Source: Cyanophora paradoxa CCMP329
Taxonomy: Eukaryota; Plantae; Glaucophyta
Assembly: GCA_004431415.1 (NCBI GenBank)
Contig: QPMI01000641.1
Location: 1-64,000, forward strand
Direction: 5' to 3'
Length of the DNA stretch: 64,000 nucleotides
Positions 20,574-45,232 of the stretch are shown here, piece by piece. A program made the position numbers and the translations under genes. The notes beneath the pieces are model-generated. The model saw nothing but the letters and a program-made list of their open reading frames with translations, had not been told where the DNA came from and did not search any database. Position 1 is the stretch's first letter, and each line of letters opens with the position of its first letter.

Positions 20574-20644
20574 ACACATATAAAAACAAATATTATTATC
20601 CCTCGCGTTCCGCTCAGGATAATAATATTTGTTTTTATATGTGT
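20574..20644. other. Terminal hairpin (28-bp perfect stem, 15-nt loop)
   Basis: ACACATATAAAAACAAATATTATTATCC - CTCGCGTTCCGCTCA - GGATAATAATATTTGTTTTTATATGTGT; the same structure is at the right end (~46641-46711). Confidence 0.92.
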
Positions 20645-20902
20645 GTTACTATAAGTTATATAAAGATATTAGCATTTTTATCATAGTGTATATCGATATG
20701 TGATATGTATTCTATCGGTAGTTCGTAAATGAATCAATAAAAATAATATAAGTATCGTGGAATCTTTGAAAAATATGTATATATAATATGTAATCGCGAT
20801 ATAGCCGATATGTGTTTACGATGCGCGATGTGTATCTAAAACAACTACAATGTGCTGCTTGGGACGCGCCTCATATAGTCATGTGTATCACCTACGTAGC
20901 TT

Positions 20903-21931
20903 CGATAGGGTGGGCGGGTGGGGTGAGGTGGGGCATTTTTTGAATTCCCTAAAATGTTTCACTCCCAAAAATTCTTGGTCAAAAAAGACCCCACCCAACC
21001 CCACTTACCCCACCCTGTATTATTCTCTTTATCTATGATTGATTTCAATGTAATTTAAATATAAATATGTATGATTGAGTATGTTAAATTAATACTGGAT
21101 GGGGTGTGAGGGTGGGGTGTGAGTGGTATCGGTATGGTAGTCCAATCTAAGATGGCACACATAAAATCATGATGTGTTATTTTTACTTCCGGTTTGATAC
21201 TTATCGGACTTCGATAACTTCGATAGGGTGGGGCGGGTGGGGTGAGGTGGGGCATTTTTTTGAATTCCCTAAAATAATTCCCCCTCAAAAATTCTTGGTC
21301 AAAAAAGACCCCACCCAACCCCACTTACCCCACCCTGTATCTTTTATTATATTTATGATTGATTTCAATGTAATTAATGTATAAAGTATAGAGATTATGT
21401 ATGTTAAATTAATACCGGGTGGGGTGTGAGGGTGGGGTGTGAAGGTGGTATCTGCCAACGAATTAACAATTACGATATTGAACCGACGTGATACCGACGT
21501 GATACCGACGAGATATGATATATTCAGATCGTATTAGAACGGCGCGATCACTAAGAAAAACAAGTATCATGTGCTGTATATTTCGCGATCCCTGAATCGC
21601 GAATCGATAGGGTGGGGTGAGAAAGTGGGGGCACCACCCTCACTGTATACACTGTGATATGATCGCAATCCCGATGTAGCCTACTATGATATCGTGCGGA
21701 CTTCGATAGGGTGGGGTAAGTGGGGTGAGGTGGGGCATTTTTTTGAATCCCTTAAATTTTTGGGGGTCAAATATTTTTGGGCAAAAAAGACCCCACCCAA
21801 CCCACCCTCCCCACCCTGTATTACTTATCGATACACCTCACTTATTTCAATGTATAAACTCTATTAAATTAGATAGTAAATATGTATAGAAATAACGAGA
21901 TTGTAGTATAGGGTGGGGTGTAGGGTGGGGG
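20903..21931. repeat. Three copies of a G-rich/C-rich imperfect inverted-repeat module (20903-21020, 21221-21340, 21704-21821), each followed ~80-90 bp later by a GGGGTGT..GGTGGGG tail
   Basis: CGATAGGGTGGG..GTGGGGTGAGGTGGGGCATTTTTTG ... CAAAAAAGACCCCACCCAACCCCAC..CCCCACCCTGTAT; mirrored in the right TIR. Confidence 0.9.
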
Positions 21932-22174
21932 CAAAATGCAAACTGAATCAGTGCGATATAATTTAGTGAACACAAAGTGGATATGAAGTGGATACGAAGT
22001 GGATACGAAGGGGATAAGTGCGCCCCGCCCACTATGCAAGATACATGCAAACTACATGCGAGTTCTATGAAAACAATAACGATTTAGTCATGTATATATT
22101 TCGTATATATGTCCGCACCTCCGTGTGTGTGATCCCGCACAACTTTGCTTTTTTGTGTTTTTTTTGTTTTTTTC

Positions 22175-22540
22175 TCATATGGCAACATATACATATATAC
22201 TAGCCGGGTCTCGTTTGCGGGATAGGTGCGGCGCATTAATCTGAACGACCTCTTGCCGGCTATACCACTCTTGCAATTTCTTATAATTCTCGTCGGGCAG
22301 CTCTTGCCGTAGCTTAGTGATCCCTTTGAAACCGGTTTGCGGATCGTAGAATTTACGCGCGATTTTCGATTGCTCCGGGACAGCAAGGGCTACGGGCACG
22401 TCGCGGGGCACCAAAGCCTTTAAATCAGACCGCTTTACTATGCGGCTCTCTTTATTCTCTTTCGGCACGGGGATCGGCAATGTGCTCCCCTCTAAATCTT
22501 GCGATCGTCTTACTATGGGCGGTCTTGACATCCTTGTCAT
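22175..22540 (-). pseudogene. N-terminal stub of a Polinton-type (rve/DDE) integrase; catalytic core absent
   Basis: FYDPQTGFKGITKLRQEL...KLQEWYSRQEVVQINAP resembles the YYDP..GF.G..KL....EWL..Q...Q.H.P N-terminus of Polinton integrases. The frame then runs into (TA)n/A-rich DNA and reaches the TIR ~125 bp after the stop. Confidence 0.6.
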
Positions 22541-22603
22541 CAGACAATAAAAAAGATCAATGTAACATTTTACATGCAGGCGACAAGAAAAGGTATTGTT
22601 TGT

Positions 22604-22945
22604 TTACGGTAAATCAGGGCGGAAGATCTTAACAACGATGCTGTTTCTATCGTATGTAAACCACCCATTATGCTTGTCCCACGATGCCCCGTTTTCCTTT
22701 AAGAATTTGCGCAAGGTCGCCCGAGATTTAATAGTTAATCCATGCGCTTCGAATTTAGGATAGGACTGTGAAAGGTCTCTCCGCGGCACATCTAAATAAA
22801 CGCGCCGCATCGCTTCCTGACGTTCACGCTCACGCCTCTTTTCTGACTTCTGAGCCTGAGCATGAATCAGTGCGAATAGAAGATCGCCTGAATTCGCATC
22901 TAATCCAGATTCTTCAAATACTTTAACAGGGTCGATCACTTCCAC
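22604..22945 (-). CDS. Viral hypothetical protein (113 aa)
   Basis: Intronless ORF in the tightly packed minus-strand viral cluster; start uncertain (GTG). Confidence 0.5.
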   Translation of the reverse strand: MEVIDPVKVFEESGLDANSGDLLFALIHAQAQKSEKRRERERQEAMRRVYLDVPRRDLSQSYPKFEAHGLTIKSRATLRKFLKENGASWDKHNGWFTYDRNSIVVKIFRPDLP

Positions 22946-22959
22946 AAAATCGGCAGCAA

Positions 22960-23259
22960 TTACGTTGGGGTCTTCTTCGAATAACTCCTTCTCTCCTCGT
23001 GCGGTATTTCCGGATACGTAAACCAGAAAAAGCGATTGTCGACCATTTTCCCATACATTCTATTAGGGTTTGCAGGAAAATAGCCGATCACGGAGAAAAG
23101 TATGTTTTGAATATCCATCAGACTAACAAGACGGATAATCGTATTCATTTGTTCATCATTCAGACCAAGAAAGGTAGCGAATACAGGGTTGCCTTCTTTT
23201 AGAATGCTCATTATCGATCGGTGGCGCTGACGTTCGTCGCCTTCAATTGCGTTGTCCAT
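22960..23259 (-). CDS. Viral hypothetical protein (99 aa)
   Basis: ATG preceded by the element's conserved motif AAAATATTTTCTCAGCTTAAAGTAAAA and by AAAATTGA at 23351-23358 (minus). Confidence 0.7.
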   Translation of the reverse strand: MDNAIEGDERQRHRSIMSILKEGNPVFATFLGLNDEQMNTIIRLVSLMDIQNILFSVIGYFPANPNRMYGKMVDNRFFWFTYPEIPHEERRSYSKKTPT

Positions 23260-23664
23260 TGTCGCCTTTTACTTTAAGCTGAGAAAATATTTTCCTGTTG
23301 CCTAAATGTAGCGCGTTCTCCTTAAATCATTTTCTGTTGCCCACGGGCTTTCAATTTTTACAGCGATCGTGGTGAGACTCTCACGTTTACTGTCAATAAA
23401 ATCAGTTTACCTGAGCGTTTATTGTCACGATTTTCACAATTGTTGTAAACTTTACAAGTAAACACTGTAAAATGCGCAATAAAAACGTGCAGTAAACAGT
23501 AGAATGGACGCCCCGGTATGGGACGCGCACCCGATCCCTAATTACTTCCTAATTGAACCCGACGACCCCTTTTTACGGTGCATATGGCTTCTCCATATCC
23601 TAAGGCGACAGCTCCTTCAATTAGAGCGCAAACCAAGAAAAAGAACGCACGATAAGATAGACGA

Positions 23665-26600
23665 CTAACAGCCGAATGGAAGGCTATGTATGCCGTCGCC
23701 TGATATGCAGCGCTTGCTATCGAATTGGGTCAGCGCTATCCGCTTGCTCTCCAAATCATATAAGTGGTGGCATCGCCGTTGCTTGTTTACTACTGTTACT
23801 GTTTTTGTGATCCCGTCAAATAGGCAGCGCTTAAAGTCGTCGAAATGCACCTCTTTCGAGGCTGTCCCGCTCATTTTTACCTTGTCGTAGCTCTCGGTGC
23901 GGAAAGCATATAGCTTCGGTCGCAGCCCCACATACTCCACTATCTTGACGTCGGGCATCTCATTTTTATATTTACCGGGAACCATCCGGTTCTCGGGATT
24001 ATAAGGGCAATCTAAATGAGGGCTGATCGCTCGCATGCCCGCTTCCAGATCCGCGGTCTCTATATACAGACAGAACGAGTCGGTATCGTGGAACAGCAGC
24101 TGAGCTTGCGAGAAAGTCGGTCGGATCACGTCGTAAAAGAAGCTATAATTATGGAGCTTCGCGGCATCCAGCACATAAGCGCCAATCGCAACCGGTTTAT
24201 CGAGTTTTACGTGTTTGCTATACATTTCGAATGCGACCGCAGTCTCGTTTAATACATTCGTCGCTTTTACCAGTGGGCTCGCGGCGTATTTCTTAAACAG
24301 CTTCGTGCTATTCGCGATCTTTACCACTGAGCGCCCTCGACACGATTCCAGGCATTTACCGTAAATAGCATTGTTCATTAATTTAAAGAAGTCGCTCTCG
24401 AATTTATTCCGGGCTTCCTTTCGCAGTTTCGTGTTTAGATCTATATAGGGCTTCATAAATGCAGCGGTTGCAAACGAGAGCACACGGTGGATCTTAGTAA
24501 CTACGATCCCCTTTTTTACCATATAGAGCAGCATCGGCTGAGAAACGACGTAATTATATTTCGGGGTAAATGAGGCGATCAGCTTCGGATCTTTACTGAG
24601 CTTCTCGCCGCTAATCTCCAAAAGCCCACGCTGATATTTGCCGAGCATGTCCGCAGTAATTACCTCTTTACTCACAATTAAAGGGAAATCGCGATGGTCA
24701 GCCTTTAAATAGTCCGGATAGGCAAGGTCGACCTCTATAAATGCACTCCGCCCTACAACCTCGGTAAAAGCCGTGCTTGTGTCGTCCCAGCGATAGTCCC
24801 CGACCGGTAAAGGCTGACTGAGCGCATAGCCATACAGATTATTCGCATCCAATAGCACTATATGTTTATCCTCGCTATTAGCCTCGGCATATCGTGTGGG
24901 CATGGTCGCAAAGCCGCCCCTAATTGCCCGCTCAATAAATTCGTATTGATCCGCATCGCTGATCTGTTCTATCGCGACCCTCGTATGCTTTAACATCGCG
25001 TCCCACGATAGTCCCGGTGCGCTCACATAATGCGTGGGATCCAGTCCGTATTGCTCATGGGCGAGCATGCTGAATTTACCGAATTTTACCATGAGATCAT
25101 TAACATCGGACGCCTGAAAATCCATGAAATTCGAGGCGTCTATAAACTTGTAAAGTCCCCACTGTAAAGAGAGATACTCGTCGAAATTCTTACTCAGGAT
25201 CTCGACCCGCAGCTTATCGTCTTGCTGTGCGATTTTCCTGAATATAGCATGCCCGCACTCGTCCATCCGATCAATGACCACGGCTACTTTCGTTTGCTTT
25301 GAGATCCGCCTATGTAAATTGCATTTTCGGCAAGCTTTCCCTATATAATCGCCGCTTTGGTGACAGTGATCGCGCACAGGGAAGTTTTCGTGGGTAAACC
25401 GCTGATTGCATATATAGCAGTGCTTGGTGAGCTTATAGGCTTGCTTTTGCGCCTCTGTGAGCGGGATCATAGGCGTGTTGGTAAATAGGGTATTAAGCAT
25501 CTCGCGACACAGATCCCCTAACGTGGTAAACATCTGTCCCAGCGGATCCACGCCCTCGAATTCGTGATTTTCAACATGAGAGCCCATAACAACATTAAGT
25601 GCCACCGACTTTACCTCTCGCTTGGTTCGATTTGGTTCATTAGGAACCGGCACCGACTCCATCTCTACCTTGCAGTAGCAGACAGTAGGAAGCCACACCA
25701 TTTTCCTTAGGTGTTGCAGTCCGAAAGTAATAAAGCTTCCGGGCTCCGGGCATTTACCTTTACTCAGCCGCCAATCGATACAGCGATTAGAGTCGGTGTG
25801 GCTATCGAGTTTCTCCTGTGATCTAAACCGGGACAAACAGGTTTCGCAGTAGAAAATGCGCCCGTCGTTTGCTTTATCAAAGGTGGTCTTTAATAGGCGG
25901 CTCAGTGACATAATCGTAATATAGTGACCCTGTCCGTTTGCGTCCTCGATCAGCAGCAGGTTTACCTTCGATTTACGACGCGGATTACTTGACATGTGCA
26001 GTGGGTAAAAGGTTTGGGTCGCATTGTCGGCGCCATATATATTAATCGACAGCTCGGGATTATTATCCTCGAAACGATCTATTAATGCAGCATCGCAAGC
26101 CACCGGGAAATTAATGCCTGAGAAGTCCAGCTCAGTCATCCACCGCCTATATTGGAACGGATCGTTACGTTTGTGTCTGTTTATGTCGTTTCTGTGCAGC
26201 CATGCGAGAATAGCGTAATTAAAACAGTCGTGACCATCGATATTCTTAATATTTACTGTGGCTCGCTTTAATCCAATCCATTCGGGGGTCTCAATGTAGC
26301 AGCCGCCCATCGGCGCATACGACAAAACGGCGACATGTAGCTTATCTAATTTACTTAGCCGGTAGCTGTCGACCTGTATCATCTGTTCATTCATTTGCTG
26401 AGCTACACCCACTAACTCAGTGAGAATATTGCGCGACCTTGTGATTACGAAATAATCGCTGTAAATGTGTTTGGTGATAAAAACGTTAGGATCACTCACT
26501 TTTACGTATCGGCAGATGAAAGTAAGTCGCACCTTAATAGCTTTAAGCTCGTCCAGCCGTTCTTTCAGCCGCCCAGGCAGATTTGCAGCGATGGTAGTGA

Positions 26601-26928
26601 GAAATTCCACCGGATCTAAGATTATCTGTTCATCCGCCTTATAGCTATACCAGGCGTATGCTTTATTCATTGCAAAACCGTCTTCCTCATCGGGTTCTAT
26701 GACGGCTAAGCGCCGCCCTTCGGTATAGAAGCGCTCCACATTTTCCAGGCGATTGTAGAGCTCGTCGGCAATATTCGCAAGGTTAGCTAAGCGGGGTTTT
26801 CGATCTAAGATCGCCGCCCTCCGATCGTATTCGGCTTCGGTGATCTCCCCAGTGACTAAAAGACTACCTAACAAGCCTAATATTTCGTCTTTTTTCTCTT
26901 TTATAAGGCGATTAGTTTGGCGGGGCAT
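23665..26928 (-). CDS. pPolB: Protein-primed family B DNA polymerase (Polinton type, with endonuclease VII-like Zn insert); exonuclease motifs degenerate
   Basis: VNIKN..DCFNYAILA, FSGINFPV, CYIC...VRDHCH..G...CNL, YGLDPTHYVSAPGLSWDAMLK, DANNLYG (motif A), KLMNNAIYGK (motif B), HDTDS (motif C), GLRPKLY. Confidence 0.95.
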   Translation of the reverse strand: MPRQTNRLIKEKKDEILGLLGSLLVTGEITEAEYDRRAAILDRKPRLANLANIADELYNRLENVERFYTEGRRLAVIEPDEEDGFAMNKAYAWYSYKADEQIILDPVEFLTTIAANLPGRLKERLDELKAIKVRLTFICRYVKVSDPNVFITKHIYSDYFVITRSRNILTELVGVAQQMNEQMIQVDSYRLSKLDKLHVAVLSYAPMGGCYIETPEWIGLKRATVNIKNIDGHDCFNYAILAWLHRNDINRHKRNDPFQYRRWMTELDFSGINFPVACDAALIDRFEDNNPELSINIYGADNATQTFYPLHMSSNPRRKSKVNLLLIEDANGQGHYITIMSLSRLLKTTFDKANDGRIFYCETCLSRFRSQEKLDSHTDSNRCIDWRLSKGKCPEPGSFITFGLQHLRKMVWLPTVCYCKVEMESVPVPNEPNRTKREVKSVALNVVMGSHVENHEFEGVDPLGQMFTTLGDLCREMLNTLFTNTPMIPLTEAQKQAYKLTKHCYICNQRFTHENFPVRDHCHQSGDYIGKACRKCNLHRRISKQTKVAVVIDRMDECGHAIFRKIAQQDDKLRVEILSKNFDEYLSLQWGLYKFIDASNFMDFQASDVNDLMVKFGKFSMLAHEQYGLDPTHYVSAPGLSWDAMLKHTRVAIEQISDADQYEFIERAIRGGFATMPTRYAEANSEDKHIVLLDANNLYGYALSQPLPVGDYRWDDTSTAFTEVVGRSAFIEVDLAYPDYLKADHRDFPLIVSKEVITADMLGKYQRGLLEISGEKLSKDPKLIASFTPKYNYVVSQPMLLYMVKKGIVVTKIHRVLSFATAAFMKPYIDLNTKLRKEARNKFESDFFKLMNNAIYGKCLESCRGRSVVKIANSTKLFKKYAASPLVKATNVLNETAVAFEMYSKHVKLDKPVAIGAYVLDAAKLHNYSFFYDVIRPTFSQAQLLFHDTDSFCLYIETADLEAGMRAISPHLDCPYNPENRMVPGKYKNEMPDVKIVEYVGLRPKLYAFRTESYDKVKMSGTASKEVHFDDFKRCLFDGITKTVTVVNKQRRCHHLYDLESKRIALTQFDSKRCISGDGIHSLPFGC

Positions 26929-26970
26929 CTTTTACTTTAAGGGAACATTTTAATTTCGGGAAAGGACGCG

Positions 26971-27324
26971 TTACATTCGCATAAACTGAATCCAACTTAC
27001 CGGATTCGAAATGTCGACATCAAATGAGGATGCTCCCCTTCTCTGAAAATTATAGCAGAATTCACAATGAAAACCTTGTGATATTGGTATGAGTTTTTCC
27101 GTATCTCCACAGATCATACAACAGTTGCCCGTTCCTGTTCGTTTATACATTGATTGGGCTATGGCTTGTTGGAATGGTGTTAATTTCAACTCGCCAACAT
27201 TTGCATCTATCATAGATACAACCGGGCGCCCACTTGTTGCGCCAACTATCGTGCTACGCTGACGTTTGCTTTTGCTTTTCTTACCCATTGTTATAACTAT
27301 TTTTAGAGGCTCTTTTAAAATCAC
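26971..27324 (-). CDS. Small viral Zn-ribbon protein (probable start at MGKKSKSK, ~27288)
   Basis: CMICGD...CEFC; basic N-terminus; AAAATTGA at 27326-27333 (minus) upstream. Confidence 0.65.
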   Translation of the reverse strand: MILKEPLKIVITMGKKSKSKRQRSTIVGATSGRPVVSMIDANVGELKLTPFQQAIAQSMYKRTGTGNCCMICGDTEKLIPISQGFHCEFCYNFQRRGASSFDVDISNPVSWIQFMRM

Positions 27325-27434
27325 ATCAATTTTTGCATCGGGAGTGATTCATCCGATGCCGAATGTCGGAAATCATTTAAAGAGAACTCAAAAAATGACA
27401 TGAAAAACGTTTTCCGTCTGTTATTGTAAAGAGC

Positions 27435-28289
27435 ATGGCGGCGAAACCGATGTCATATTTGGAGCGCTTAAAGGAAGCCTTGCGCGACCTGTGTGGCTCT
27501 GATGATTTCCATGACTATGTAAGCTTAGGAAGTAACAAAAACCTTGGGTTGCTCTCAACCAAACTGAAAAAATACGATTTAGACCTACATCATCTCCCTC
27601 GGGATTCCCCTACATGTGCATGCACGCATGATATAGTGGAGCAGTGTTATATATTGCATGTCGCCAAAAAGATCCCTGTTGTGGTCGGAAATTGCTGTAT
27701 AAAACGCTTTATTCCCAAAGAGTTCCGCTGTGATGTCTGTAAGCACTGTGGGGATCGTCACAGGAACCGCAAAGACAACTACTGTAAGAAATGTCGCCCA
27801 CTCATTGCACGTCAGAGGTGGATCGAAGAACAGCATGAACGACTGAAAGAAGAAGAAGCGGAGAGAGAGCAAAGAGCAGAACGCATAAGGTTGTTTGAGG
27901 AACACCAGAGGTTGTTTGAGGAACACCAAAGGCGCCTCAGGGACGAAAAATGGCTTGAACGCTTTCAGAAAGAAATGAATTTAAGAGAGTTCGCGATGTG
28001 GGCAACAGACTTCATTGAATCCATGGAAGAAAGCCGTGAGGAAGATATTGAGAAGTTCAGAGCTGATAGAAAGAAATTCGTCGACAGGTTAGCCAAATGC
28101 AGCTCAATCGATGGGGTTCAGGTTACCATAGGTTTTCGAGTCCCATTGAACAGGAAGGATATACCAAAATCCCTCAATTGCAATAGGGTTAGGGTTTTCA
28201 CATGGGAAACGTCTAATGTCGAGCAAACTATTGAACTACTCAAAAAACACTTCACGATGGATTATATAAACATAACCGTAGAAACGTAA
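27435..28289 (+). CDS. Viral Cys/His-rich Zn-binding protein with a coiled coil
   Basis: CACTH...VGNCCIKRF...CKHCG.RHRNRKDNYCKKC, a pattern reminiscent of NCLDV/PLV hypothetical proteins; E/R-rich helix. Confidence 0.8.
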   Translation: MAAKPMSYLERLKEALRDLCGSDDFHDYVSLGSNKNLGLLSTKLKKYDLDLHHLPRDSPTCACTHDIVEQCYILHVAKKIPVVVGNCCIKRFIPKEFRCDVCKHCGDRHRNRKDNYCKKCRPLIARQRWIEEQHERLKEEEAEREQRAERIRLFEEHQRLFEEHQRRLRDEKWLERFQKEMNLREFAMWATDFIESMEESREEDIEKFRADRKKFVDRLAKCSSIDGVQVTIGFRVPLNRKDIPKSLNCNRVRVFTWETSNVEQTIELLKKHFTMDYINITVET

Positions 28290-28330
28290 GCCGATTGTAT
28301 ACGTGGTAAATAGCTGACTTTTTTGTTTTT

Positions 28331-28546
28331 CGATAGGGTGGGGAGGGTGGGGTGAGGTGGGGCATTTTTTGAGTTCCAATAAAAAATTCTCCCACCCAAA
28401 AATTTTGGGCAAAAAAGACCCCACCCAACCCCACCCTCCCCACCCTGTATTAAGAACTATACTTTACACTGAATTCAATGTGTTTTAAGTTATAAAAATA
28501 AGATATATCAATGTTAGAATGAAACCAGGTGGGGTGTAGGGTGGGG
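28331..28546. repeat. Internal (seventh) copy of the TIR G/C module, between convergent genes
   Basis: CGATAGGGTGGGGAGGGTGGGGTGAGGTGGGGCATTTTTTG...GCAAAAAAGACCCCACCCAACCCCACCCTCCCCACCCTGTAT plus the GGTGGGGTGTAGGGTGGGG tail, which abuts the primase-helicase stop codon. Confidence 0.9.
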
Positions 28547-31168
28547 TCAGGCTTCCACATCTGAATCCTCGAATTTGGTGCCCCTTTTCTTTGGTTGCGG
28601 CTGAGGAGAATCATCTTCTTTAATCGAATCATCATCGATTAGCTTCAACTTTCGGAATTCAGCCATCATCTCATTCCACAGGAAGTGATAGTTAGATTTT
28701 CCATTGGTCGTTTTCACTTGAATATATGTAGTCGTGCGCATCTCAGTATAGAACCGCTTGCTATTATAATCGTTTTTATATTTGTTTTCAGAGATGAAGT
28801 CTTTGAACAGCTCCCATGTCGATGCAAGACCGCCCAGCTTGGTTTTCAGCTCTGTAACTCGCTCACTATCGACAAGCCACTTCGCAAACATAAGAATAAT
28901 CGGTGCAGCCGCTTGCTGAACTAAGTAGTATCGGTTTGTAAGCGGTCTGTCTTGACTCCAATTGACTTTCTCGCAATTTACTTTCGTCCTGAGATACTGA
29001 ACGATATTTCGAATATTTCTCATATCATTCAGCCACTCGACAAGCGGGGCGAAATAATCCTTATTACAGCGCTGTTTGTCACTCACCTCAATAACGACAA
29101 AGCGACGATCATCAGCCTCGATTTTCACAGGCACAGTATTGTTACTTGTAAATACAATTCGAGCGAAATTCTTCTTATCATAAGAATCGATTCCCTTGTG
29201 CTCGATTACAATCTTCGGGGCTGTGACTATATCTTTGAGAAGGTCGCTATGTTCAAAGGTATCCTTTCCAGAAGCTTCATTTACCACAATCATAATCTTA
29301 TCCTCCCTATTGTGAGCAAACCGCCCGAATAAATCATCCTTTGGCTTGGCTGTCGAGTATGCCAATGCATCACCGAGTATCTTCTTCTCAAAGGTATCAA
29401 TGAGCATATTCTTTCCAGCGCCTTGGCGACCTAGGAAGATGAGGGACACGTTATTTAGTTCCCCCGGCTTTTGCATCATGTGGGCAAACCACTTTTTAAG
29501 ATAATCGAATGTCTTATCATCCTCGCCTGACATTAAATATAAATGCGTCAGGAAAGGCTGAATCATCTCTTCTGTGATATCCTCGGGGGGCGGCTCCTCG
29601 AATTCTTCATGATCAATCTTGAATCCAGGGTAGAGATTGAATACAGACTTGCATTTCGCGCTCAGCTTTGCAGGAGGCGGCAGGAAATCCATATAAGTGG
29701 ATCGTGTCGCCCTCGGGTCAGTAATCCATTCAGGCAACGTTTTTACCCACTTTTCGGTTTGGTTCTCAGTCCCCTCATTGAGAATCACCTTGTGAAACAG
29801 ATGGGGAAAATGCTTGGTCGCCAATTTCGTAATATCTTTCGGTCGCCAGGATAATAGCTGTTCATCCCAATACATGACAGTGCCAATACTCTCGATGTGG
29901 TGCAGTCGCGCATTTAAATATCGCAGATGGACTTCAAAGCTATCGACCATAGGTGGAATGGGGGCAGTCTTGTAGTCAATATCGTCGGAATCCTCAGGCT
30001 GAAACGAATATTTCTTGGGGAATAGCTTATTATAACTATCGCTGTTGTCCTTTTTCAGCCAGTAAACAATCGAACCGAATGTAACCCGCTTTCCTTCCAC
30101 CATTTTCTTGCCTTTGCAAAGGCTCATGAACTTCTCATGACAGTCATCATATTCATATTTTTCGCTTTTCTCCGAGAACTTATGAAATAGCTCTACTTGT
30201 TGCTTGCGAGGGATATTGTTGTCTTCGCAAGTATTGATTATAGCAATACCTACGTCGATCCATGTCTTATATTCATTAGCTCGCTCCCCACTGAGGCTCA
30301 TAATGACTTCTTGCAACAGTTCAAACGAAACCTTATTTTCTTTGAGATCGTCCAACACCTCCTCCTTCTTCTTCACAGGTTCTTTACAGGGCTTGTCCTT
30401 AACAGACTTGGGCGCCACCGTTTGCTTAGGTTCCTCAGGCTTTGTAGCTTCCTTTTGTTTATCGACCGCAAAGGCTGACATGGTGTCTACTTCCACCCAC
30501 TTAGTGGGGCGATCGAAACATTGCACCAGGAAAAAGCCATCGTGCATGCCTTCTTTCTCACAATCAATGAACTTAGTGAACACAACATTCTTATCGACAT
30601 CGTGCTTTGATTTGCTTTGAGCGTCCAAAGCTTCGCCTTTGCAGCAACGGAGGCAGATCAGGTTTTGAGTTGTTCCATAAACGCCACTATCGAATTCGAC
30701 ATTTTTGATGAGACCCATCGCTTTAAAAAGCTTTGGAATGTCTTCGTGGCGGCAGACCAGATCGGTAAATACGAAATGCCCGGAAATCTTGAACTTAGTG
30801 ACATTCTCTTTGATTAAATGAACCCGCCGATGGCGAACAGCAACCGCAATAGTAGATCCTGATAGGTCTTGCAATTTCTTGCGCATTTCCCTGATGATCT
30901 CTTCGGCTTCCTTGTAATTGTCGGCAACATCAGGTTTCAGATCTACGAACTTGTCCAGATCCAGATAAACACGAGTTACTTGATCAGGTTGTATGCATTC
31001 CGCCCAGGTAGGGAAGGTCATATTGTCTCGTTTCTTTGAGTTATTGATGCGCTCAATAATCTCATCGTCGGTTAACTCAATTAAATTGGACTTATTGCGT
31101 TCACCTTTCAGACATTTCAGAAAGGTGCCCTTGGTATTCGAGAATGCGAATTTCGTGATAGCGTCCAT
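28547..31168 (-). CDS. Archaeo-eukaryotic primase - PriCT-2 - SF3 (D5-like) helicase fusion
   Basis: AEP motifs RVYLDLD / KISGH / FDSGVY; PriCT-2 YKTWIDVGIAI..FHKFSEKSEKY; Walker A GRQGAGKN, Walker B IVVNE, motif C FTSNN, arginine finger DDRRF. Confidence 0.9.
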   Translation of the reverse strand: MDAITKFAFSNTKGTFLKCLKGERNKSNLIELTDDEIIERINNSKKRDNMTFPTWAECIQPDQVTRVYLDLDKFVDLKPDVADNYKEAEEIIREMRKKLQDLSGSTIAVAVRHRRVHLIKENVTKFKISGHFVFTDLVCRHEDIPKLFKAMGLIKNVEFDSGVYGTTQNLICLRCCKGEALDAQSKSKHDVDKNVVFTKFIDCEKEGMHDGFFLVQCFDRPTKWVEVDTMSAFAVDKQKEATKPEEPKQTVAPKSVKDKPCKEPVKKKEEVLDDLKENKVSFELLQEVIMSLSGERANEYKTWIDVGIAIINTCEDNNIPRKQQVELFHKFSEKSEKYEYDDCHEKFMSLCKGKKMVEGKRVTFGSIVYWLKKDNSDSYNKLFPKKYSFQPEDSDDIDYKTAPIPPMVDSFEVHLRYLNARLHHIESIGTVMYWDEQLLSWRPKDITKLATKHFPHLFHKVILNEGTENQTEKWVKTLPEWITDPRATRSTYMDFLPPPAKLSAKCKSVFNLYPGFKIDHEEFEEPPPEDITEEMIQPFLTHLYLMSGEDDKTFDYLKKWFAHMMQKPGELNNVSLIFLGRQGAGKNMLIDTFEKKILGDALAYSTAKPKDDLFGRFAHNREDKIMIVVNEASGKDTFEHSDLLKDIVTAPKIVIEHKGIDSYDKKNFARIVFTSNNTVPVKIEADDRRFVVIEVSDKQRCNKDYFAPLVEWLNDMRNIRNIVQYLRTKVNCEKVNWSQDRPLTNRYYLVQQAAAPIILMFAKWLVDSERVTELKTKLGGLASTWELFKDFISENKYKNDYNSKRFYTEMRTTTYIQVKTTNGKSNYHFLWNEMMAEFRKLKLIDDDSIKEDDSPQPQPKKRGTKFEDSDVEA

Positions 31169-31377
31169 CTTCTCTGTTTTACTCTAAGCGGAGAAAATAT
31201 TTTTCAGGTTGTTCATTTTTTGCGCATTATCCTTAAATCCCTTTACAGTTTTTTCCCGATGATAAAATCGATTGCGATCGGGCAACCGATAGTATGGTAA
31301 GGAGCTTCCCGATTTGCATCGGAAAGCCGCTCGAAAAATAAGGAATAGGCTCAGCGGCAATCGAGAGTTTGCGTTTC

Positions 31378-31608
31378 CTAATACTTACGGGGGCGCCCCC
31401 GCTTTCCCATATGGCTTCCCTCCTCGGCCTTGCGACGATAATACGATTCCAAAGCCATCTTCTTCTTGAATTCGCGATATTCGGGATCCTCGTTATACCG
31501 ATTCCGCATTTTGATGATTTCACGGATCCGATAATTAAGTCCGTCGCCTTTCTTCATGTCCTCAGTGACAAGCTTTGCCTCAATATTTACAGCAGCGATG
31601 GTGGTCAT
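31378..31608 (-). CDS. Small basic DNA-binding protein with a C-terminal AT-hook
   Basis: Ends in KRGRPRKY; preceded by the conserved motif AAAATATTTTCTCCGCTTTGAGTAA. Confidence 0.75.
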   Translation of the reverse strand: MTTIAAVNIEAKLVTEDMKKGDGLNYRIREIIKMRNRYNEDPEYREFKKKMALESYYRRKAEEGSHMGKRGRPRKY

Positions 31609-31827
31609 CTTTGCGTTTCCTTACTCAAAGCGGAGAAAATATTTTATCAGTCGTATTTCCTATTTCTTCTTTAAATCATTTTCTGAGCTGTCATTTTTTG
31701 TGACCGAAGCGAGCTCTTCTCTACGTTTTTTAATAGCGGCTTCCAGTGCATATTGCGCGCATTTCCTGTATAGGATCGCGTAGAGATCAGGGTCGGGCAT
31801 TCGATACTATTTAACGCGAAAATAGTT

Positions 31828-32175
31828 TCAGCGATCGTATTCGCCCAAATAAAGCGGATTTATTGGCGGATATGGCGAATCAACGCGAATATGACCTTCT
31901 ACGAAATTAGGGCACGACCGGCGTCGTATATAGGATACTTGCACGTCTTCTATTGCTACCTGTGGGATTATATTGGAGTCAGCGGGCACAGGCGAGGGCG
32001 ATCGGGATCGTGGGCGATCGTGATTATCGCTGTGGTTGGAATATACAGATAATCGCCTTCCTCCATTATCCTCGTCAGAAATGTCAACCTCTACGGTTGT
32101 GTCGCAGCAGGAGTTGTGGCACGTGCTTGTGAAATGCAGGTGAAACATCTCAATGCATTGTGTGATGAAATTCAT
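31828..32175 (-). CDS. Viral hypothetical protein (probable start MNFITQC; SCC motif, RS-rich)
   Basis: Internal ATG within the ORF track entry 31828..32310; start uncertain. Confidence 0.4.
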   Translation of the reverse strand: MNFITQCIEMFHLHFTSTCHNSCCDTTVEVDISDEDNGGRRLSVYSNHSDNHDRPRSRSPSPVPADSNIIPQVAIEDVQVSYIRRRSCPNFVEGHIRVDSPYPPINPLYLGEYDR

Positions 32176-32404
32176 CGACCCTAATATTGCACAACGTATT
32201 AAATATTGGAGAAAAGAAAAGGGAATGAGGGTGTTACTTGCTCGTGTGTTCCCATACGAATTAGTCGACCTTATAATGGTGTTTGTGGAGCCGTCCTGTC
32301 CCTTTTGCAAGGGAATTCATATTAAGACCCGCTCTAAATACGGGCGGATTCATTTATGTTTGAACGACTTGCACATTAGAAGCGACGACGCCCACCAAAC
32401 ATAG
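32165..32404 (+). CDS. Viral hypothetical small protein with CPFC motif
   Basis: MKFIDP...FPYELVDLIMVFVEPSCPFCKG; overlaps its neighbours at both ends. Confidence 0.4.
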   Translation: MKFIDPNIAQRIKYWRKEKGMRVLLARVFPYELVDLIMVFVEPSCPFCKGIHIKTRSKYGRIHLCLNDLHIRSDDAHQT

Positions 32405-33047
32405 ATGACAGATTGGCACCCGGCTGTGCATGCACACCCGATGGGTTAACGAAACCGCCCGGCTTTGGTGCATTTTCAGCTATGACTGTCTCTTTTCTTT
32501 CGACTGTCTGAACATCGGGAACAGTCGCCCGCTTCTTTTCCATTTCCACGCGAACAGCTTGTTTAATCAGCTTGCGCTGTTTGTATTCCTTAGTGAAATC
32601 ATCAAAGGCTCGCACAGTAGTGTCGTATGTAGCCAGTCGCGCTTCGAGCGCCCTAAACTTCTCCTCTAATTCCTGACCGACTTTCTCGCCCTTGGTCACA
32701 TAGACAGATGCCCGCTTTTTAGGGGCTTCCATCGATGCAGGTAAAGCGGCTGTTGCTTCGGCTTTTACCACCTTATTATCAGTAAGCTTTTCGCCTGTGA
32801 GCTGTGATTCGGCGAGGGATTGATCCGCCAGCTTTCTATCAGTGGAATCGACCGGCTCTCGCTTAGCATCCACCTTTTGAGCACGCTCTGAAACCTTGGT
32901 ATTCGGATCAATCAGATCGAAATCTATTTGGTCAGAAGCGGCAGCACCACCAGTGCGACCGGCATCCTCCGCAGGATTAATCTTGCCAGCGACAACAGCG
33001 CTTTGATCTTCCATTTGGATAGCTTTCCGCGAGTTCTTGGGTGGCAT
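32376..33047 (-). CDS. Viral hypothetical protein (coiled coil, possible core/scaffold protein)
   Basis: 223-aa ORF directly downstream of the ATPase; upstream ATAAATTTCTCGC motif; ends in MFGGRRRF. Confidence 0.75.
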   Translation of the reverse strand: MPPKNSRKAIQMEDQSAVVAGKINPAEDAGRTGGAAASDQIDFDLIDPNTKVSERAQKVDAKREPVDSTDRKLADQSLAESQLTGEKLTDNKVVKAEATAALPASMEAPKKRASVYVTKGEKVGQELEEKFRALEARLATYDTTVRAFDDFTKEYKQRKLIKQAVRVEMEKKRATVPDVQTVERKETVIAENAPKPGGFVNPSGVHAQPGANLSSMFGGRRRF

Positions 33048-33070
33048 TTATCATTATGCGAGAAATTTAT

Positions 33071-33982
33071 TCAAAATTTACCCAATTTCTTTGCAAATTT
33101 TGGGCGGCGCTTTTCTTGGTATGCCAGCAATAGATTGGGGTCTTTAAGTAGGTCGGCTTCGATTATTCTCTTGGTGGATCGCTTTAAGGTTGCGACGTTT
33201 CCACTCACAGGTTTCGTAATATCGGTGGTTTGGGGTTGGTCGCCATTTACCGCGCCCGACGTCGGTTTTACCGACTGTTTACCAGCGGTCTTTATGTCGT
33301 CCGCCGCTTTCTTAAAGAAGCGCTTGAATTTATATTCGTCGGGCACCGGATCCGCTTTGCCCACAGAGAATTCCAGGCTATATTTCGCATTGTTTACCAC
33401 GATCACCTGATAGCTGTGACTGTATTCGGTCATCACCTTCTCGAACCACCGCTTTTCGTATGGATTAAACTCGTCCTCGGCGCTCTCCATCTCTTTTCTA
33501 TTGGGCAATGAGAACAGGAATATATATTCGGCGTTTACTCTGAGTGTCGGCGAGATTTTCGTGAGTTTCTGTGACAAAATCCAGACGCTCACAAACAGAT
33601 GGCGTCCAGCAGTGAAAAGACGATTTAATATAGGCTCACCCTTTCCTGACATCGATAGACTCGGATTATCAATAAAATCGTCCAGCACAATTAACAGGTT
33701 ACCGACTTTCTCATTTTTCTTGATCCTCTCCTTGCGTTTCTCTATTATATTGTCGATCAGCTTATGGTCGAAATCCTCATACAGATACGATGTGACATTG
33801 TCGTATTGATGATTCCAGATCGTGGAGGCGAATATCATCACCGAATCTATCTTGTCCTCGTTGTGGTAAAGCAGGTATTTCAAAAACACTGACTTCCCAG
33901 TTGCAGTTTTGCCCACAAAAACGGCGCGATTCGGAAATTCCAGGCTTCCCGGGTCAAACTCACTCAGATCTTGTATATCCAT
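33071..33982 (-). CDS. A32/FtsK-like genome packaging ATPase
   Basis: Walker A VFVGKTATGKS, Walker B LLIVLDD, GRH..VSVWILSQ, ISPTLRVNA; probable start at MDIQDLSEFDP (33982). Confidence 0.93.
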   Translation of the reverse strand: MDIQDLSEFDPGSLEFPNRAVFVGKTATGKSVFLKYLLYHNEDKIDSVMIFASTIWNHQYDNVTSYLYEDFDHKLIDNIIEKRKERIKKNEKVGNLLIVLDDFIDNPSLSMSGKGEPILNRLFTAGRHLFVSVWILSQKLTKISPTLRVNAEYIFLFSLPNRKEMESAEDEFNPYEKRWFEKVMTEYSHSYQVIVVNNAKYSLEFSVGKADPVPDEYKFKRFFKKAADDIKTAGKQSVKPTSGAVNGDQPQTTDITKPVSGNVATLKRSTKRIIEADLLKDPNLLLAYQEKRRPKFAKKLGKF

Positions 33983-34027
33983 TTCCCTTATAAGAAACAT
34001 ATAAAAATTACGAAACGCCACAGCCCT

Positions 34028-35476
34028 CTATGCGCTTATCTTAGACAATCCATTGGCATTCATCACAAGAATATTGTGGCAGTAAGCCGAGATCTGAACA
34101 CCGACCTTTGTCCAGGTGGCGAGGGGTGTGCCATTGGGTGTGAGGAGCAGGAAACTTGAAGCTGATTGAGTTAGATCGACGTAGCCAGTCGCCTTCTCAC
34201 CTTTGAGCGCCGCTTTACCATCGAGGGCAAAGCAGAAGCCAGTGTAAATGGGGCGCTTGTTGCTATCGATCCAGTTGGTCATCTTGAATTTATCGGCGAG
34301 CTCCATAGCCGCAGATTGCAGCGGGACACCAGTATTAGAATATAGGTAATTGTTGTTATTCAGAACTTGCATCACGACATTATCATCGAAGGCAAGGGTG
34401 CGGACAGTAGAGTGCCCTCCTTTATTATCGCCGAGTGTGTTTTCGTCGCGAACCTTGACAACAAGTGCATAAACGAGTCCAGAAATTTGAGATAGTGACA
34501 GGCGGAGACCAGAGCCGAGAGCTTGACCGGTATAATCCGCAAACTGAATATCAGTGTAGGGGATGGCAATGCCAGAAGTCTTAACACGAGTAATGATTTC
34601 GCCCATCGTTTCCTCATCGATGTTAACAGCATCCATAATAAGACGAGGGGTCGTCATTTCCAGATTTGCAAGAGCAGGGGTGGGTGTGAGAGCCGCACTA
34701 TCGAAAATCGCAGTGGCATTAGGGTGGGCTAAGGTCTTAATATTTCCGAAAGCAGCCGCAGCAATAGCCGTCGTCTCGCCATCAGTAGAATTGGCAGCGG
34801 TAATAGCAGCAGTGTTATTCTGAGCGTAAACGCCAGGAACCGCCGCAGTTTCGAGCAGCGCAGGGGTTTGGAAGTGCACCTCGACCGCGATTTCGGATGG
34901 GAGCGCACCGATGGGCACACCAGCATCGAGGAAGCTCGGAATTCGCATGGTAAAAATGCCACCGGCTTGGTTGCCGCCCTCTACCTTAGGTCCGAGATGC
35001 AGCCCATGCTTGCGCTTCTTTTGCTCGAATTCAGCCGGAGAGTTAGCCAGGAAAGCGTAATCTACCAGTCGCTCAGCCGGAATAATTTGCTCATACGACC
35101 CGTATTTAATGCTGACTCGCTGAACAAACGAGCCAGGAAGCCCGCGGACGAATCCAGTGTTGAATAGATCAGCCGAGCAGTCAGCAGAGGTCTTAGCGAT
35201 GGCAGTCAGCGCCTTTGCCGTAGGGATGGTAACTTGGAGGCTAATACCATTGCACCAATTGTAGCGAGGGAGATAGAAGACCACACGAGTGGTAGCACCA
35301 GTAGAGGAGAACAGATTGCCGGGATCCGCAATTGGGAGCACCTCAACACGAGAAGGCTTGAATTGTTTATCAACGCCCACAATAAATCCGCGATCCAAAA
35401 GCATGCTCTTGTAATCCTCCGGGGTTTCGAGGACGGATTTGAGCGTGAGGCGGCTAAGCGAGGTCGTGGGATCCAT
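34028..35476 (-). CDS. Major capsid protein (double jelly-roll, PLV type)
   Basis: 482 aa, beta-rich (RVVFYLPRY..GISLQVTI, FVQRVSIKYGS); C-terminal TGYVDL...VQISAYCHNILVM..NG typical of DJR capsids; lies between the ATPase and a penton. Confidence 0.82.
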   Translation of the reverse strand: MDPTTSLSRLTLKSVLETPEDYKSMLLDRGFIVGVDKQFKPSRVEVLPIADPGNLFSSTGATTRVVFYLPRYNWCNGISLQVTIPTAKALTAIAKTSADCSADLFNTGFVRGLPGSFVQRVSIKYGSYEQIIPAERLVDYAFLANSPAEFEQKKRKHGLHLGPKVEGGNQAGGIFTMRIPSFLDAGVPIGALPSEIAVEVHFQTPALLETAAVPGVYAQNNTAAITAANSTDGETTAIAAAAFGNIKTLAHPNATAIFDSAALTPTPALANLEMTTPRLIMDAVNIDEETMGEIITRVKTSGIAIPYTDIQFADYTGQALGSGLRLSLSQISGLVYALVVKVRDENTLGDNKGGHSTVRTLAFDDNVVMQVLNNNNYLYSNTGVPLQSAAMELADKFKMTNWIDSNKRPIYTGFCFALDGKAALKGEKATGYVDLTQSASSFLLLTPNGTPLATWTKVGVQISAYCHNILVMNANGLSKISA

Positions 35477-35509
35477 ATTTCGTTTTTATCTTCCGCTGAG
35501 AAATTTATT

Positions 35510-36796
35510 TTAGAAGAACGGATTATTTTTTACAGCCACCCCGCTCAACGCATTCGTTAAATTGCCGCAATGCGGGTAGTCCTCATATAGCATTTTCGCG
35601 AATCCCTTATTAACGATGCGCTGTAAATCGTCGTCGGGCTCATCCACTCCCATAGTGAGTTCCAAAATGAATGTGTGCTCACAGCTTCCGAGGAAATACC
35701 TATAACCGCTCTCTGTCAGGATTTGCACGGTTAAACTATCAAAGGAAAGGCGGGTGTTAAAGTATTTCGTGAAAGCATCCGCCCCATAATTAATAAGCTC
35801 AGCATCCGCATAGGCTGTGCCTTTCGAAATCGGGATCTTAGCGAGGAATCCATTAGTAGCCTCGGTGCATGTCGTAAAAAGCGAGCAGTCCGGCTCTGTG
35901 ATCTTTAAGACTATTGCATTATCCGGTGTATAATCAGGGGCAGTGCCTCCGGCTATGCCTAAGACCAGAGCCGTCGAATTATAATTGCGGAATGCATCAC
36001 CAGCTGAGTAAACGACACCACTCCCAGCAAAGGCTGTATAGCCCGAACCGTTGTATTGATCTATCATTATATTCTCTCTGATCGATGTAAACCCGAGAAG
36101 AGTCATCGTGCGATAGGCGAGCACCTTTCTTTCATTCGCAGTAGACGCAGTGGCATTACTCGGACCATATTTCGTGAAAGCTATGTAGACATAATCACTC
36201 GAATAAAAGCATATGGCGTTTAATGTGCTCTCAAAACGACATCTCACCACCGGGTAAAAGGTTCCCCCGGTCGATGCGTAGCTTGGATTAATTTTTGTAT
36301 CGATCATATCCTTGATGTAGTTGCCAGTTCCATTTTTCGTTAAGATGTTATCGATTGCAGTTGCAAGGTCGGTTCCAGTCGAGTATGTGCCCGGAGGGAT
36401 CGTAATTGCTACGTCTCTGTATCGGGTATATCTTCTGAAAGTGTTTAGGTAATCAGGCGGTATATAGTTGCCTTGGTCGCCAGCATCTATGGCTTTGTAA
36501 GCGTCATATATTGCAGTTGCCTGTGAATCTCTGATTTCCTGAGTGGCACCATTCAGCTGACCGCTCGAAAATCGGTAAGGAAATGATATGAAAATCGTAT
36601 TAGCATCATCGGCTTTCGTTTCCCCGATCTCAGTATAGAATTGAGGGCTTGGAACCGTGGGAATCGTGTTGGAAAATTCGATCTGTCGCACAGCGATGCT
36701 CTTCACATTGTGGTATTGCTTTGGAAGGGTCACCTTATAGGAATGAGCCGAGCCCTCTGATCGATCACGGCTACTGATGCTGAGATACTCGCGCAT
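35510..36796 (-). CDS. Minor capsid protein (penton) paralog 1
   Basis: MREYLSISSRDR...YKVTLPKQYHNVKSIAVRQIEFSNT, ITIPPGTYS, TLLGF, LAKIPI, SLTVQIL...EHTFILEL; true start probably the ATG at 36796. Confidence 0.8.
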   Translation of the reverse strand: MREYLSISSRDRSEGSAHSYKVTLPKQYHNVKSIAVRQIEFSNTIPTVPSPQFYTEIGETKADDANTIFISFPYRFSSGQLNGATQEIRDSQATAIYDAYKAIDAGDQGNYIPPDYLNTFRRYTRYRDVAITIPPGTYSTGTDLATAIDNILTKNGTGNYIKDMIDTKINPSYASTGGTFYPVVRCRFESTLNAICFYSSDYVYIAFTKYGPSNATASTANERKVLAYRTMTLLGFTSIRENIMIDQYNGSGYTAFAGSGVVYSAGDAFRNYNSTALVLGIAGGTAPDYTPDNAIVLKITEPDCSLFTTCTEATNGFLAKIPISKGTAYADAELINYGADAFTKYFNTRLSFDSLTVQILTESGYRYFLGSCEHTFILELTMGVDEPDDDLQRIVNKGFAKMLYEDYPHCGNLTNALSGVAVKNNPFF

Positions 36797-36823
36797 TTTA
36801 TTCTTTATTAATAGGAAATAAAA
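36797..36823. promoter_or_regulatory. 27-bp AT-rich quasi-palindromic spacer between two divergent ATGs (putative bidirectional promoter)
   Basis: CAT-TTTATTCTTTATTAATAGGAAATAAAA-ATG, centred on TATTAATA. Confidence 0.5.
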
Positions 36824-37796
36824 ATGATTCGGAAGCCAGTTAACGATTTCTATAATGGCAAGTTTACGAGGGTCAATGTTAATATCGATTCTATTGAGCG
36901 CAGTGCAGGGCACCCGGGAGAATATACAGTAAAGCTTTCTCAGCGACTTCTGAACGTAAAAGGGGTGCGCATTGCGAGCGCCGAGCTCCCAAACACGATT
37001 TATGCTGTCACCGATAATTCCAGAGGCGTGACCATACAGGGAATGACGAACAGCATCACCTTTTCCCCTTTCCCTGATATTGGGAACTACACCCCGCGAT
37101 TTGGGGATATGGTAATAAGAACTTAGGCTACTCGGGCAGCTTTGTCGATGTAAACCCTCTCACAAGCGAAAGCGTCACAGTCTACTACAAGTGGCTCTAT
37201 AATCCAGCGACTATGAAAATTACGTTTTATTCGAGCATTCCCCTCGCACTGAGCTGTGCACATGACGACTTTGCAAGGTTCCATGGAATGATCAAAGGGA
37301 TATGTATCAAACAATTCCAGTTGGTGAGGGTTCAGAGCATCTCACGGTAGACTATTTACCCCTCACACCCAGCAATCCAAAATACTCATTTCTACAAGCC
37401 TATGAGGGCAAAACAAAATACCCCGCCGGAATATCTGTGCTTCCATTCCCTCTCGAACATGTAGTGACCTTCCCAAATGCGATTAATCTAAATCCGACCC
37501 CCTATGTTTACCTACAAATTAAAGAGTTTACTCCCTTTTACGACAGGTATATGGTAGCAGCAAAGACAGATGAGGGCGGAAATGCAAACCTCGCTAAGGT
37601 TCCACTAACCAGCCCCTTGGGATCGTTTGTTTACTACCTGACATTCCGCAGAATCGATACTGTGGAGTTCTTTAATTCCCACGATCAGGCTTATGATATA
37701 GACACCCTCACAATTAAATGGCTCGATGCCTACAATAATGTAGTCGACTTTAATGGCGTTAATCACAGCTTTATATTAGAGGTGCTATCGGGTTAA
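36824..37796 (+). pseudogene. Minor capsid protein (penton) paralog 2, split by two -1 frameshifts (~37100 and ~37295; possibly sequencing errors)
   Basis: VNIDSIERS..YTVKLSQRLLNVKGVRIASAELPNTIY in the first frame, YNPATMKITFYSS..FARFHGM in the second, NLNPTPYVYLQI..LAKVP..LTIKWLD..VDFNGVNHSFILEV in the third. Confidence 0.75.
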
Positions 37797-37814
37797 AATA
37801 ATCTTATATTACAA

Positions 37815-42344: not shown

Positions 42345-42382
42345 CGATCCTAATTTTTGTAGTATGCCTTAATAGAGAAATA

Positions 42383-43846: not shown

Positions 43847-43867
43847 TAAGTAAAGAACAATCAAAAG

Positions 43868-44899
43868 ATGTCGACTGTGTTTACCCCTGTGTTTTCTTTG
43901 AGTGCAAGTGCTGTCCATAATGTGCAACACACAGTCTATGATTTATCTCCGAGCCACCCTTCGACTGAGACAGCGAAAACCGATTCTTTTAATGACCAAA
44001 GCATACTCAGAGTCAAAGAACTCAGAGCTGACAAGATTGATGGACTCGTTAAAGCTACTCAAATAATCGTATCTAATCGACCCGCAATCTCTTCGGGGCT
44101 GGTCACCAAAGAAAATCTATATGAAGGTCAACAGGATTCCAAAACGGCTTTTAATCCGGCTGATAGGAATTCGGCGGCTTTTCAAGTTTACAGTGGTGGG
44201 GCATGGATTGGGACTGGACTTGGAGTGAATGGGACAGTGACAGCTACCAATTATTCAGGGGCTGTGAGTGGAACCACTGGTGGATTTACAGGGCTCCTTA
44301 CAGCGAATGGTGGTGTTAAAACGAATTCTATTGATACTGTGGGTGCAAGTGATAATTTTGTGATCAAGAGAGGTGGGGCGAATATTGCTTCTACCTTCGC
44401 ACTAAGTTTCACAAAGAACAGCACTCAGTATAACTACAACGGATTCAGTGTAAATGGAACGAGTTCTTATTTAGCCACCCCAAATCATCCCCGTTTCTGT
44501 TGTGGGCTCACTGCTGATGGAAGTGCTCCAAATTACCTTACTGCATTTACAAATGTGTTTTTGAATAATGGTAACCATTACAATTCCACAACTGGAATTT
44601 TTACAGCACCTGTTCCGGGGCATTACAGAATAACGTTCACAGGTTTGACAACAGAAAATACAGCGGATACTGTAATCCAATTGAAAGTGAATAATGCCGA
44701 TTGGGGAAATCAAATAGCTATTCAAGCATACTCAGATGCAATTGGAGCTCTTTCAGTGGCTCGGCAATTCGGTTTTTCAGTTATACTTCCGCTTGCAGGA
44801 TATGATACTATAAGGCTTTATCTAAGTTTTGGGTCGGTTTTTGGATCAGCTGTGTATTCGAATTGTATGTGGACAGGTGAATTAATTTCTGCAACATAA
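43868..44899 (+). CDS. Fibre protein with a C-terminal C1q/TNF-like domain
   Basis: HPRF...F.NV.LNNGNHYNSTTGIFTAPVPGHYRITF...L.GYDTIRL..W.G.LI, the C1q signature. Confidence 0.85.
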   Translation: MSTVFTPVFSLSASAVHNVQHTVYDLSPSHPSTETAKTDSFNDQSILRVKELRADKIDGLVKATQIIVSNRPAISSGLVTKENLYEGQQDSKTAFNPADRNSAAFQVYSGGAWIGTGLGVNGTVTATNYSGAVSGTTGGFTGLLTANGGVKTNSIDTVGASDNFVIKRGGANIASTFALSFTKNSTQYNYNGFSVNGTSSYLATPNHPRFCCGLTADGSAPNYLTAFTNVFLNNGNHYNSTTGIFTAPVPGHYRITFTGLTTENTADTVIQLKVNNADWGNQIAIQAYSDAIGALSVARQFGFSVILPLAGYDTIRLYLSFGSVFGSAVYSNCMWTGELISAT

Positions 44900-44908
44900 A
44901 GTAATAGA

Positions 44909-45172: not shown

Positions 45173-45232
45173 AGAATTCGAAGAATGAGAGATGGGTTTA
45201 TTGTTATTTTTCATAGATCATGCATAAGAAAG

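Follow-up and report, generated by a model that had tools for sequence, protein, structure and literature searches.

Polintons, mavirus-like virophages and Polinton-like viruses (PLVs) are the closest described systems to the element reported here. In the available part of a Polinton survey, the motifs Exo I-III are conserved in the pPolBs of all taxa examined (10.1101/2023.08.22.554363), and for phi29 the four exonuclease carboxylates and the ExoIII Tyr are listed in PMC4974454 (in part). Mutants of the adenovirus polymerase in the exonuclease metal ligands fail to support replication, and the same source, as far as available, cites the equivalent phi29 ligands as essential to strand displacement (PMC3061072). 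In maviruses and PLVs, exonuclease loss goes with helicase gain according to excerpts of PMC11161782, and DUF5906 proteins are the commonest pPolB companion in one mavirus-related group (PMC13215967, in part). From these end states (mavirus and the Tlr1-like fusions) Krupovic et al. (2024) proposed that the two changes compensate each other. Finally, pPolB and AEP-SF3 proteins are described as alternative modules in the available parts of 10.64898/2026.06.19.733378 and PMC10120064. Our window, the whole stretch of 64,000 nucleotides from Cyanophora paradoxa CCMP329 (contig QPMI01000641.1), holds an integrated Polinton-like element whose pPolB (P0001) has a dead exonuclease and whose other genes include a primase-helicase. 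We found no description in the literature of an exonuclease-dead Polinton-type pPolB alongside an AEP-SF3 protein, although supplements could hold similar sequences; the available portions of PMC12220804 and PMC12721341 contain no such case.

The features of the element are collected in Table 1. With a GC content of about 43-45% against 68-79% in the host DNA, it forms an AT-richer island in the window. Its ends read 5'-ACAC...GTGT-3', GCGGCG on both flanks is a 6-bp target duplication, and the left and right TIRs are 98.9% identical. Long TIRs with a 6-bp target duplication and an A32 packaging ATPase are present, as in Polintons/Mavericks; of the complete rve integrase that also marks these elements, this copy has an N-terminal stub only. 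The copy may be non-autonomous, its integrase being cut, although the target duplication implies rve-type integration. G-rich GGGT(G)GGG subrepeats occur three times per TIR and once internally (20899-21812, 28329-28546 and 45415-46388 of the window). To judge from their letters they are quadruplex-like and candidate origin iterons, the internal copy behind the primase-helicase gene included. The single-sequence model of the candidate MCP (pLDDT 33) was set aside; in the ESM Atlas this protein lies nearer to Nucleocytoviricota-type MCP clusters than to named Polinton capsids. No maturation protease was matched among the 13 ORFs scanned against Pfam, and no viral loci were found with MCP and primase-helicase queries. 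The element also encodes fibre-like proteins, one fibre gene having a probable break. Within the fibre-gene region a GC-richer insert of about 1.2 kb (39898-41102), with the 8-bp sequence GCACTAAG repeated in direct orientation on either side (39898 and 41095), is probably a nested mobile element. Between the pPolB and primase-helicase genes lie two Cys-rich (Zn-finger-like) ORFs (26971-27288 and 27435-28289) with no family match. Across 22615-23264, contigs from sequencing runs are joined through different or unknown sequence, which means that the small genes there vary among copies. Judged by its sequence, the host seems to be a protist with densely packed genes and short introns rich in GC; one site inspected by eye (about 2600-2700) suggests that its short C-rich introns start with GC, not GT, and end with AG. 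In the host flank, a second island of intermediate GC (50200-59600, 52-61%) contains short ORFs and blocks that recur, and may consist of other mobile elements.

Table 1. Features of the element and of its pPolB (positions in the window; aa, residues of P0001)
Feature	Positions	Strand	Remarks
Integrated Polinton-like element	20574..46711		26.1 kb; TIRs, GC, target duplication
Left TIR	20574..22085		about 1.5 kb; three G-rich subrepeats
rve-type integrase stub, N-terminal	22175..22540	-	121 aa; stops before catalytic core, adjoins left TIR
pPolB (P0001)	23665..26928	-	unbroken ORF, 1087 aa
Exonuclease remnant, aa412-627	25048..25695	-	strands and helices modelled, pLDDT mostly >88
Deletion junction, aa603-606	25111..25122	-	about 97 residues gone in frame
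EndoVII/HNH Zn nuclease insert in exonuclease domain	25294..25449	-	DHxH and CxxCN kept
vOTU protease domain	25894..26271	-	Cys235 and His335 kept
Terminal-protein (TP, D1) domain, aa88-206	26311..26667	-	little-finger/PAD fold; Z 9.7, rmsd 2.5, 105 aligned
Internal TIR-subrepeat copy	28329..28546		73-78% alike; adjoins primase-helicase stop codon
Primase-helicase, 873 aa	28547..31168	-	AEP-type motifs, PriCT-2, SF3 helicase DUF5906
A32-like packaging ATPase	33071..34000	-	PF04665, E 5.6e-10
Double jelly-roll MCP, NCLDV-like, probable	34028..35476	-	ESM features, score 0.98, recognition below threshold
Right TIR	45200..46711		partner of left TIR

P0001 runs from TP through vOTU and C2H2 to the dead exonuclease, which harbours the HNH insert, and then to the polymerase; no C-terminal SF1 helicase is fused to it, the thumb being the last part of the ORF. 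Polymerase motifs A, B, C and KxY are all there (DANNLY, KLMNNAIYGK and HDTDS were found as strings), no deletion lies between motifs A and C, and TPR1 and TPR2 keep their lengths. An initial annotation, made from the letters of this DNA, had described an unbroken ORF with these polymerase motifs and an EndoVII-like Zn domain, and so we found it, all ten conserved columns of the HNH/Zn insert being retained. No PDB entry matched the pPolB by sequence. The AlphaFold2 model (mean pLDDT 90) is biased towards the intact fold because its input, an alignment of 60 sequences, consists mostly of intact homologs; its residues 413-1067 superpose on residues 5-575 of phi29 polymerase (Z 22.1, rmsd 3.0, 482 aligned). 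The little-finger/PAD match of aa88-206 was rejected as a novelty, being the TP fold published in PMC11161782 (in the part available). Conserved columns are kept unevenly along the protein: 12/28 in the exonuclease remnant against 67/82 in the palm, fingers and TPR region (Fisher p=1.8e-4), and 12/13 in the vOTU domain. The polymerase domain drifts too, 67/82 comparing with a median of 95% in the references, whose 5th percentile lies at 83%, and in the thumb Ser replaces a Lys that is nearly invariant.

In the exonuclease, the ExoI string PTVCYCKVE (aa414-422; 25663-25689) has Lys420 in place of the motif Asp. The initial annotation had called this motif lost, and overlooked that its Glu422 is kept. 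ExoII reads IDRMDECGH (aa552-560; 25249-25275), as had been annotated, and in the profile alignment it is one residue short and without the motif Asp. FIDASNF (aa595-601) is followed by DFQASDV (aa603-609; 25102-25122); here the reported loss of ExoIII holds for the Tyr, now Phe604, and not for the Asp, since Asp608 stands in register with it. Two of the four metal ligands, the ExoI Asp and the ExoII Asp, are therefore lost. Against a profile of 120 homologs with 33-38% identity to it, P0001 matches in two pieces (profile positions 50-568 and 665-1173), so that between aa603 and aa606, at about 25115, it lacks some 97 positions in frame; the annotated gap before ExoIII is real. The distance from FID to ExoIII is 12 aa, compared with 103-117 aa (5th-95th percentile) in the homologs. 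Such losses are rare in a wider survey: 394 proteins were fetched, 151 were dropped because they did not span the region, and all four exonuclease acids are kept in 235 of the 243 that span ExoI to motif A. The eight exceptions are P0001, P0242, P0377 and P0392 (one cluster), P0279 (two acids left, spacer of 45 residues) and three proteins that have lost one acid each.

P0242, which comes from another source, was the best match by far in a scan of 1.84 billion representatives. It has 1083 aa, lies on a contig of 6.3 kb, is 44% identical to P0001 and shares the identical deletion junction; all four of its acids are gone, through substitutions that differ from those in P0001. A shifted but intact acidic set, which the initial annotation had named as evidence against its reading, was not seen, and the two proteins have no alternative acidic set in common. 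They form a fully supported pair, 1.2-1.5 changes per site apart, inside a supported clade with six relatives; the exonuclease loss is derived, because none of these six is among the eight exceptions. In trees without a mavirus sequence, P0001 nests among intact Polinton-type pPolBs. P0377, with one acid remaining and a deletion that is 12 residues shorter and may have arisen independently, is placed apart from the pair in free trees, and none (0%) of 200 bootstrap trees joins them; a constrained tree that does so has a higher likelihood (LG+G4) and is not rejected (p-AU 0.75). The residues of the HNH insert are conserved in all three exonuclease-dead proteins. P0377 and P0392 lie on Logan contigs of 5.5-9.8 kb as full-length pPolBs with dead Exo motifs that retain both the HNH insert and a long TP loop. 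Further searches added little: only relatives of 32-53% were found among shorter proteins, only one intact, distant pPolB when P0242 and P0377 were sought in viral contigs, and no neighbourhood of exonuclease-dead relatives when metagenomes were searched with the two-protein alignment. The junction pattern occurred 0 times in viral contigs, and in metagenomes only as 2 chance bacterial matches.

Might the dead exonuclease reflect no more than a faulty assembly, or decay confined to this integrated copy? In this copy the integrase is indeed truncated, a fibre gene is probably broken and a 1.2-kb insert sits nested in the element. Twenty listed sequencing runs of one organism contain 62-66% of the sampled words; one of them may be the source sample, so the runs are not independent lineages. 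In each of four runs examined, 250-297 contigs map to the region, including 52-67 that are under 90% alike, which points to a multi-copy family. Run contigs bridge the deletion junction with 0 gaps (X1, 24599-25307; X5, 24599-25662). Among copies at least 80% alike, no variant was seen at ExoI or the junction (two runs, 1% threshold), and none of the mapped run contigs shows an intact exonuclease, the other finding that had been named as contrary to the annotation. A divergent variant in the host reads IVVDHMDE at ExoII (at a loose end, 25283) and is likewise degenerate. Among the best-supported 40 of 593 differences, 31 lie in the pPolB gene and change 29 codons; 25 of these changes are silent and 4 are replacements, where 75% replacements would be expected (p=5e-12). 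All listed differences in 25040-25720 give a similar picture, with 8/10 silent. Purifying selection acts on the pPolB among copies. Local decay or misassembly is hardly credible in view of the junction in the run contigs, the degenerate ExoII of the divergent variant and the mostly silent changes, and it is refuted by the junction that P0001 has in common with P0242. The annotated conclusion that selection retained a polymerase without proofreading is borne out by both the silent codons and the 44%-identical relative.

The primase-helicase gene lies two genes away from the pPolB gene, within the same TIR-bounded element. By eye, its AEP-type motifs are DxD at aa70-72, His131 and Asp160, and its SF3 part has Walker A and B, motif C and the Arg finger. 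The protein matches the helicase part of NrS-1 polymerase (E 3e-15) and phage primase families; in a large protein set it has no match at E<=1e-10. As a control we took 37 IMG/VR loci with related pPolBs, of whose contig bases 474,691/573,338 (83%) were covered; the loci are partial, 23 of those with intact Exo motifs being 13 kb or longer. All 30 control pPolBs with visible Exo motifs are intact. A match to the primase-helicase at E<=0.01 was found in 0/37 control loci, and more than one credible P-loop ORF in none of the 37. Most control P-loop ORFs are A32 ATPases; five have no clean Pfam name, one of which matched the A32 protein of the element, the others being assumed to be packaging ATPases. 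The pairing of a dead exonuclease with a helicase thus stands at 1/1, in one element, against 0/30 control loci with an intact exonuclease.

Two of four metal ligands and 97 residues have been lost from this pPolB, the deletion is common to a relative of 44% identity, and a primase-helicase is encoded in the same element. The exonuclease-dead pPolB is kept by selection, and we consider it probable that it still serves as the replicative polymerase of the element, whose own SF3 primase-helicase would unwind the DNA. In phi29 and adenovirus the exonuclease ligands also serve strand displacement or replication, so their loss would be tolerable only once a helicase unwinds the template. The SF3 helicase would have taken over unwinding and relieved the exonuclease of one of its two tasks, the remaining fold may be retained because it gives the embedded HNH nuclease and the DNA channel a scaffold, and fidelity would be lower as a by-product. 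The mutator phenotype suggested by the initial annotation is plausible, but would better be read as a consequence of the exonuclease loss than as its purpose. That a mutator was selected as useful in an arms race, independent of the helicase, seems very improbable. By root-to-tip length P0242 does come 2nd and P0001 4th among 239, but both midpoint rooting and the manner in which the set was gathered confound this order. The two TIRs share 98.9% identity, one point mutation would suffice for a mutator where 97 residues were deleted, and Exo-ligand mutants of other pPolBs cannot replicate unaided (PMC3061072, in part). The second function that had been suggested, a specialised priming or end-repair enzyme, fits poorly with the full replicase architecture that is kept (TP fold, vOTU, TPR1/TPR2 and a phi29-like fold over 482 residues), and the separate primase-helicase of the element had not been connected with it.

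Two further readings give the primase-helicase a larger part. It could prime by its AEP-type domain and hand the primers to the exonuclease-dead pPolB for elongation, protein priming being reduced or lost in such a two-enzyme replisome. Besides the AEP-type motifs themselves, the predicted TP priming loop (aa186-189) points this way, being four residues shorter in P0001 and P0242, where 205/210 relatives have no gap, as does a Glu of the TPR1 region, which 193/210 relatives have and which is Ser/Thr in both proteins. The long loop is retained in P0377, however, a D-S-Y stretch that could carry the primer is left in the loop of P0001 and P0242, and neither the vOTU Cys/His nor the TP fold has been lost (44% identity over 112 columns). 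Dinucleotide-repeat ends are expected for protein priming, and those of the element (ACAC) are of this kind. Given D-S-Y, the intact vOTU and the dinucleotide repeats at the ends, protein priming may continue, and we regard a hand-over of primers as unlikely. In its strictest form, a pPolB without proofreading or TP priming that extends AEP-SF3 primers, with the EndoVII-like nuclease as the sole editing or resolving activity, it is likewise unlikely; if true, this replisome together with an NCLDV-like capsid would make the element a living intermediate from Polinton-type to giant-virus-type replication. Alternatively, a swap of replication modules might be under way, AEP-SF3 being already the replicase and pPolB remaining for end fill-in, TP supply, or vOTU or HNH activity. 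PLVs mostly carry either pPolB or AEP-SF3 and switch frequently (available part of 10.64898/2026.06.19.733378), NrS-1-type proteins are stand-alone replicases (PMC7102993, in part), and the polymerase domain of P0001 is drifting. Yet the whole polymerase, TPR2 and thumb included, is of full length and under purifying selection, and the 1.2-1.5 changes per site that separate P0001 from P0242 are a long span for a passing state to have lasted; we find such a swap improbable.

With the dead pPolB as the probable replicative polymerase and the helicase at its side, the element can be set beside the known systems. Exonuclease loss with helicase gain is already known from mavirus, whose system the element appears to parallel. 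The available parts of PMC11161782 and PMC13215967 (pMVRE group 1) describe mavirus-like virophages that likewise have a pPolB without working exonuclease but with TP and vOTU retained, a separate SF3 helicase gene of the DUF5906 family, and integration with TIRs. The mavirus pPolB, as described there, is reduced to TP, vOTU and palm with an exonuclease remnant only, whereas P0001 keeps about 215 aa of the domain and an intact-looking HNH insert. With most of the exonuclease fold retained, P0001 does not have the mavirus TP-vOTU-palm architecture, and its SF3 helicase, unlike that of mavirus, is fused to an AEP-type primase. Other Polinton pPolBs have an HNH/EndoVII insertion, and these we take to be the ones labelled 'group 2'. 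In the accessible part of 10.1101/2023.08.22.554363 they appear as pPolB2; they are 33-38% identical to P0001 and have the same domain order, with the HNH insert between ExoI and ExoII, but in P0001 the Exo motifs are broken and its element has the primase-helicase. The Tlr1-like pPolB-SF1 fusions of PLVs and transpovirons (PMC11161782, in part) also combine exonuclease loss with helicase gain; they are SF1 fusions without the whole exonuclease, while in our element the helicase is SF3 and separate from the pPolB. We see in the P0001 lineage a half-way state in Polinton-type pPolB, in which the fold is kept, the catalytic residues are gone and a primase-helicase stands alongside. With it, two purified proteins would be enough to test whether exonuclease loss and helicase gain compensate each other, and a natural exonuclease-free pPolB is of enzyme interest because changing the exo ligands of phi29 or adenovirus polymerase by engineering costs the enzyme strand displacement or replication. 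The 873-aa ORF itself resembles the AEP-SF3 replicases of PLVs and the NrS-1 polymerase of phage (PDB 6k9c/6k9e) in its AEP-type domain, PriCT-2 and SF3. In PLVs such a protein normally replaces pPolB; this element has both, and it may show how PLVs switch between two modules otherwise reported as alternatives.
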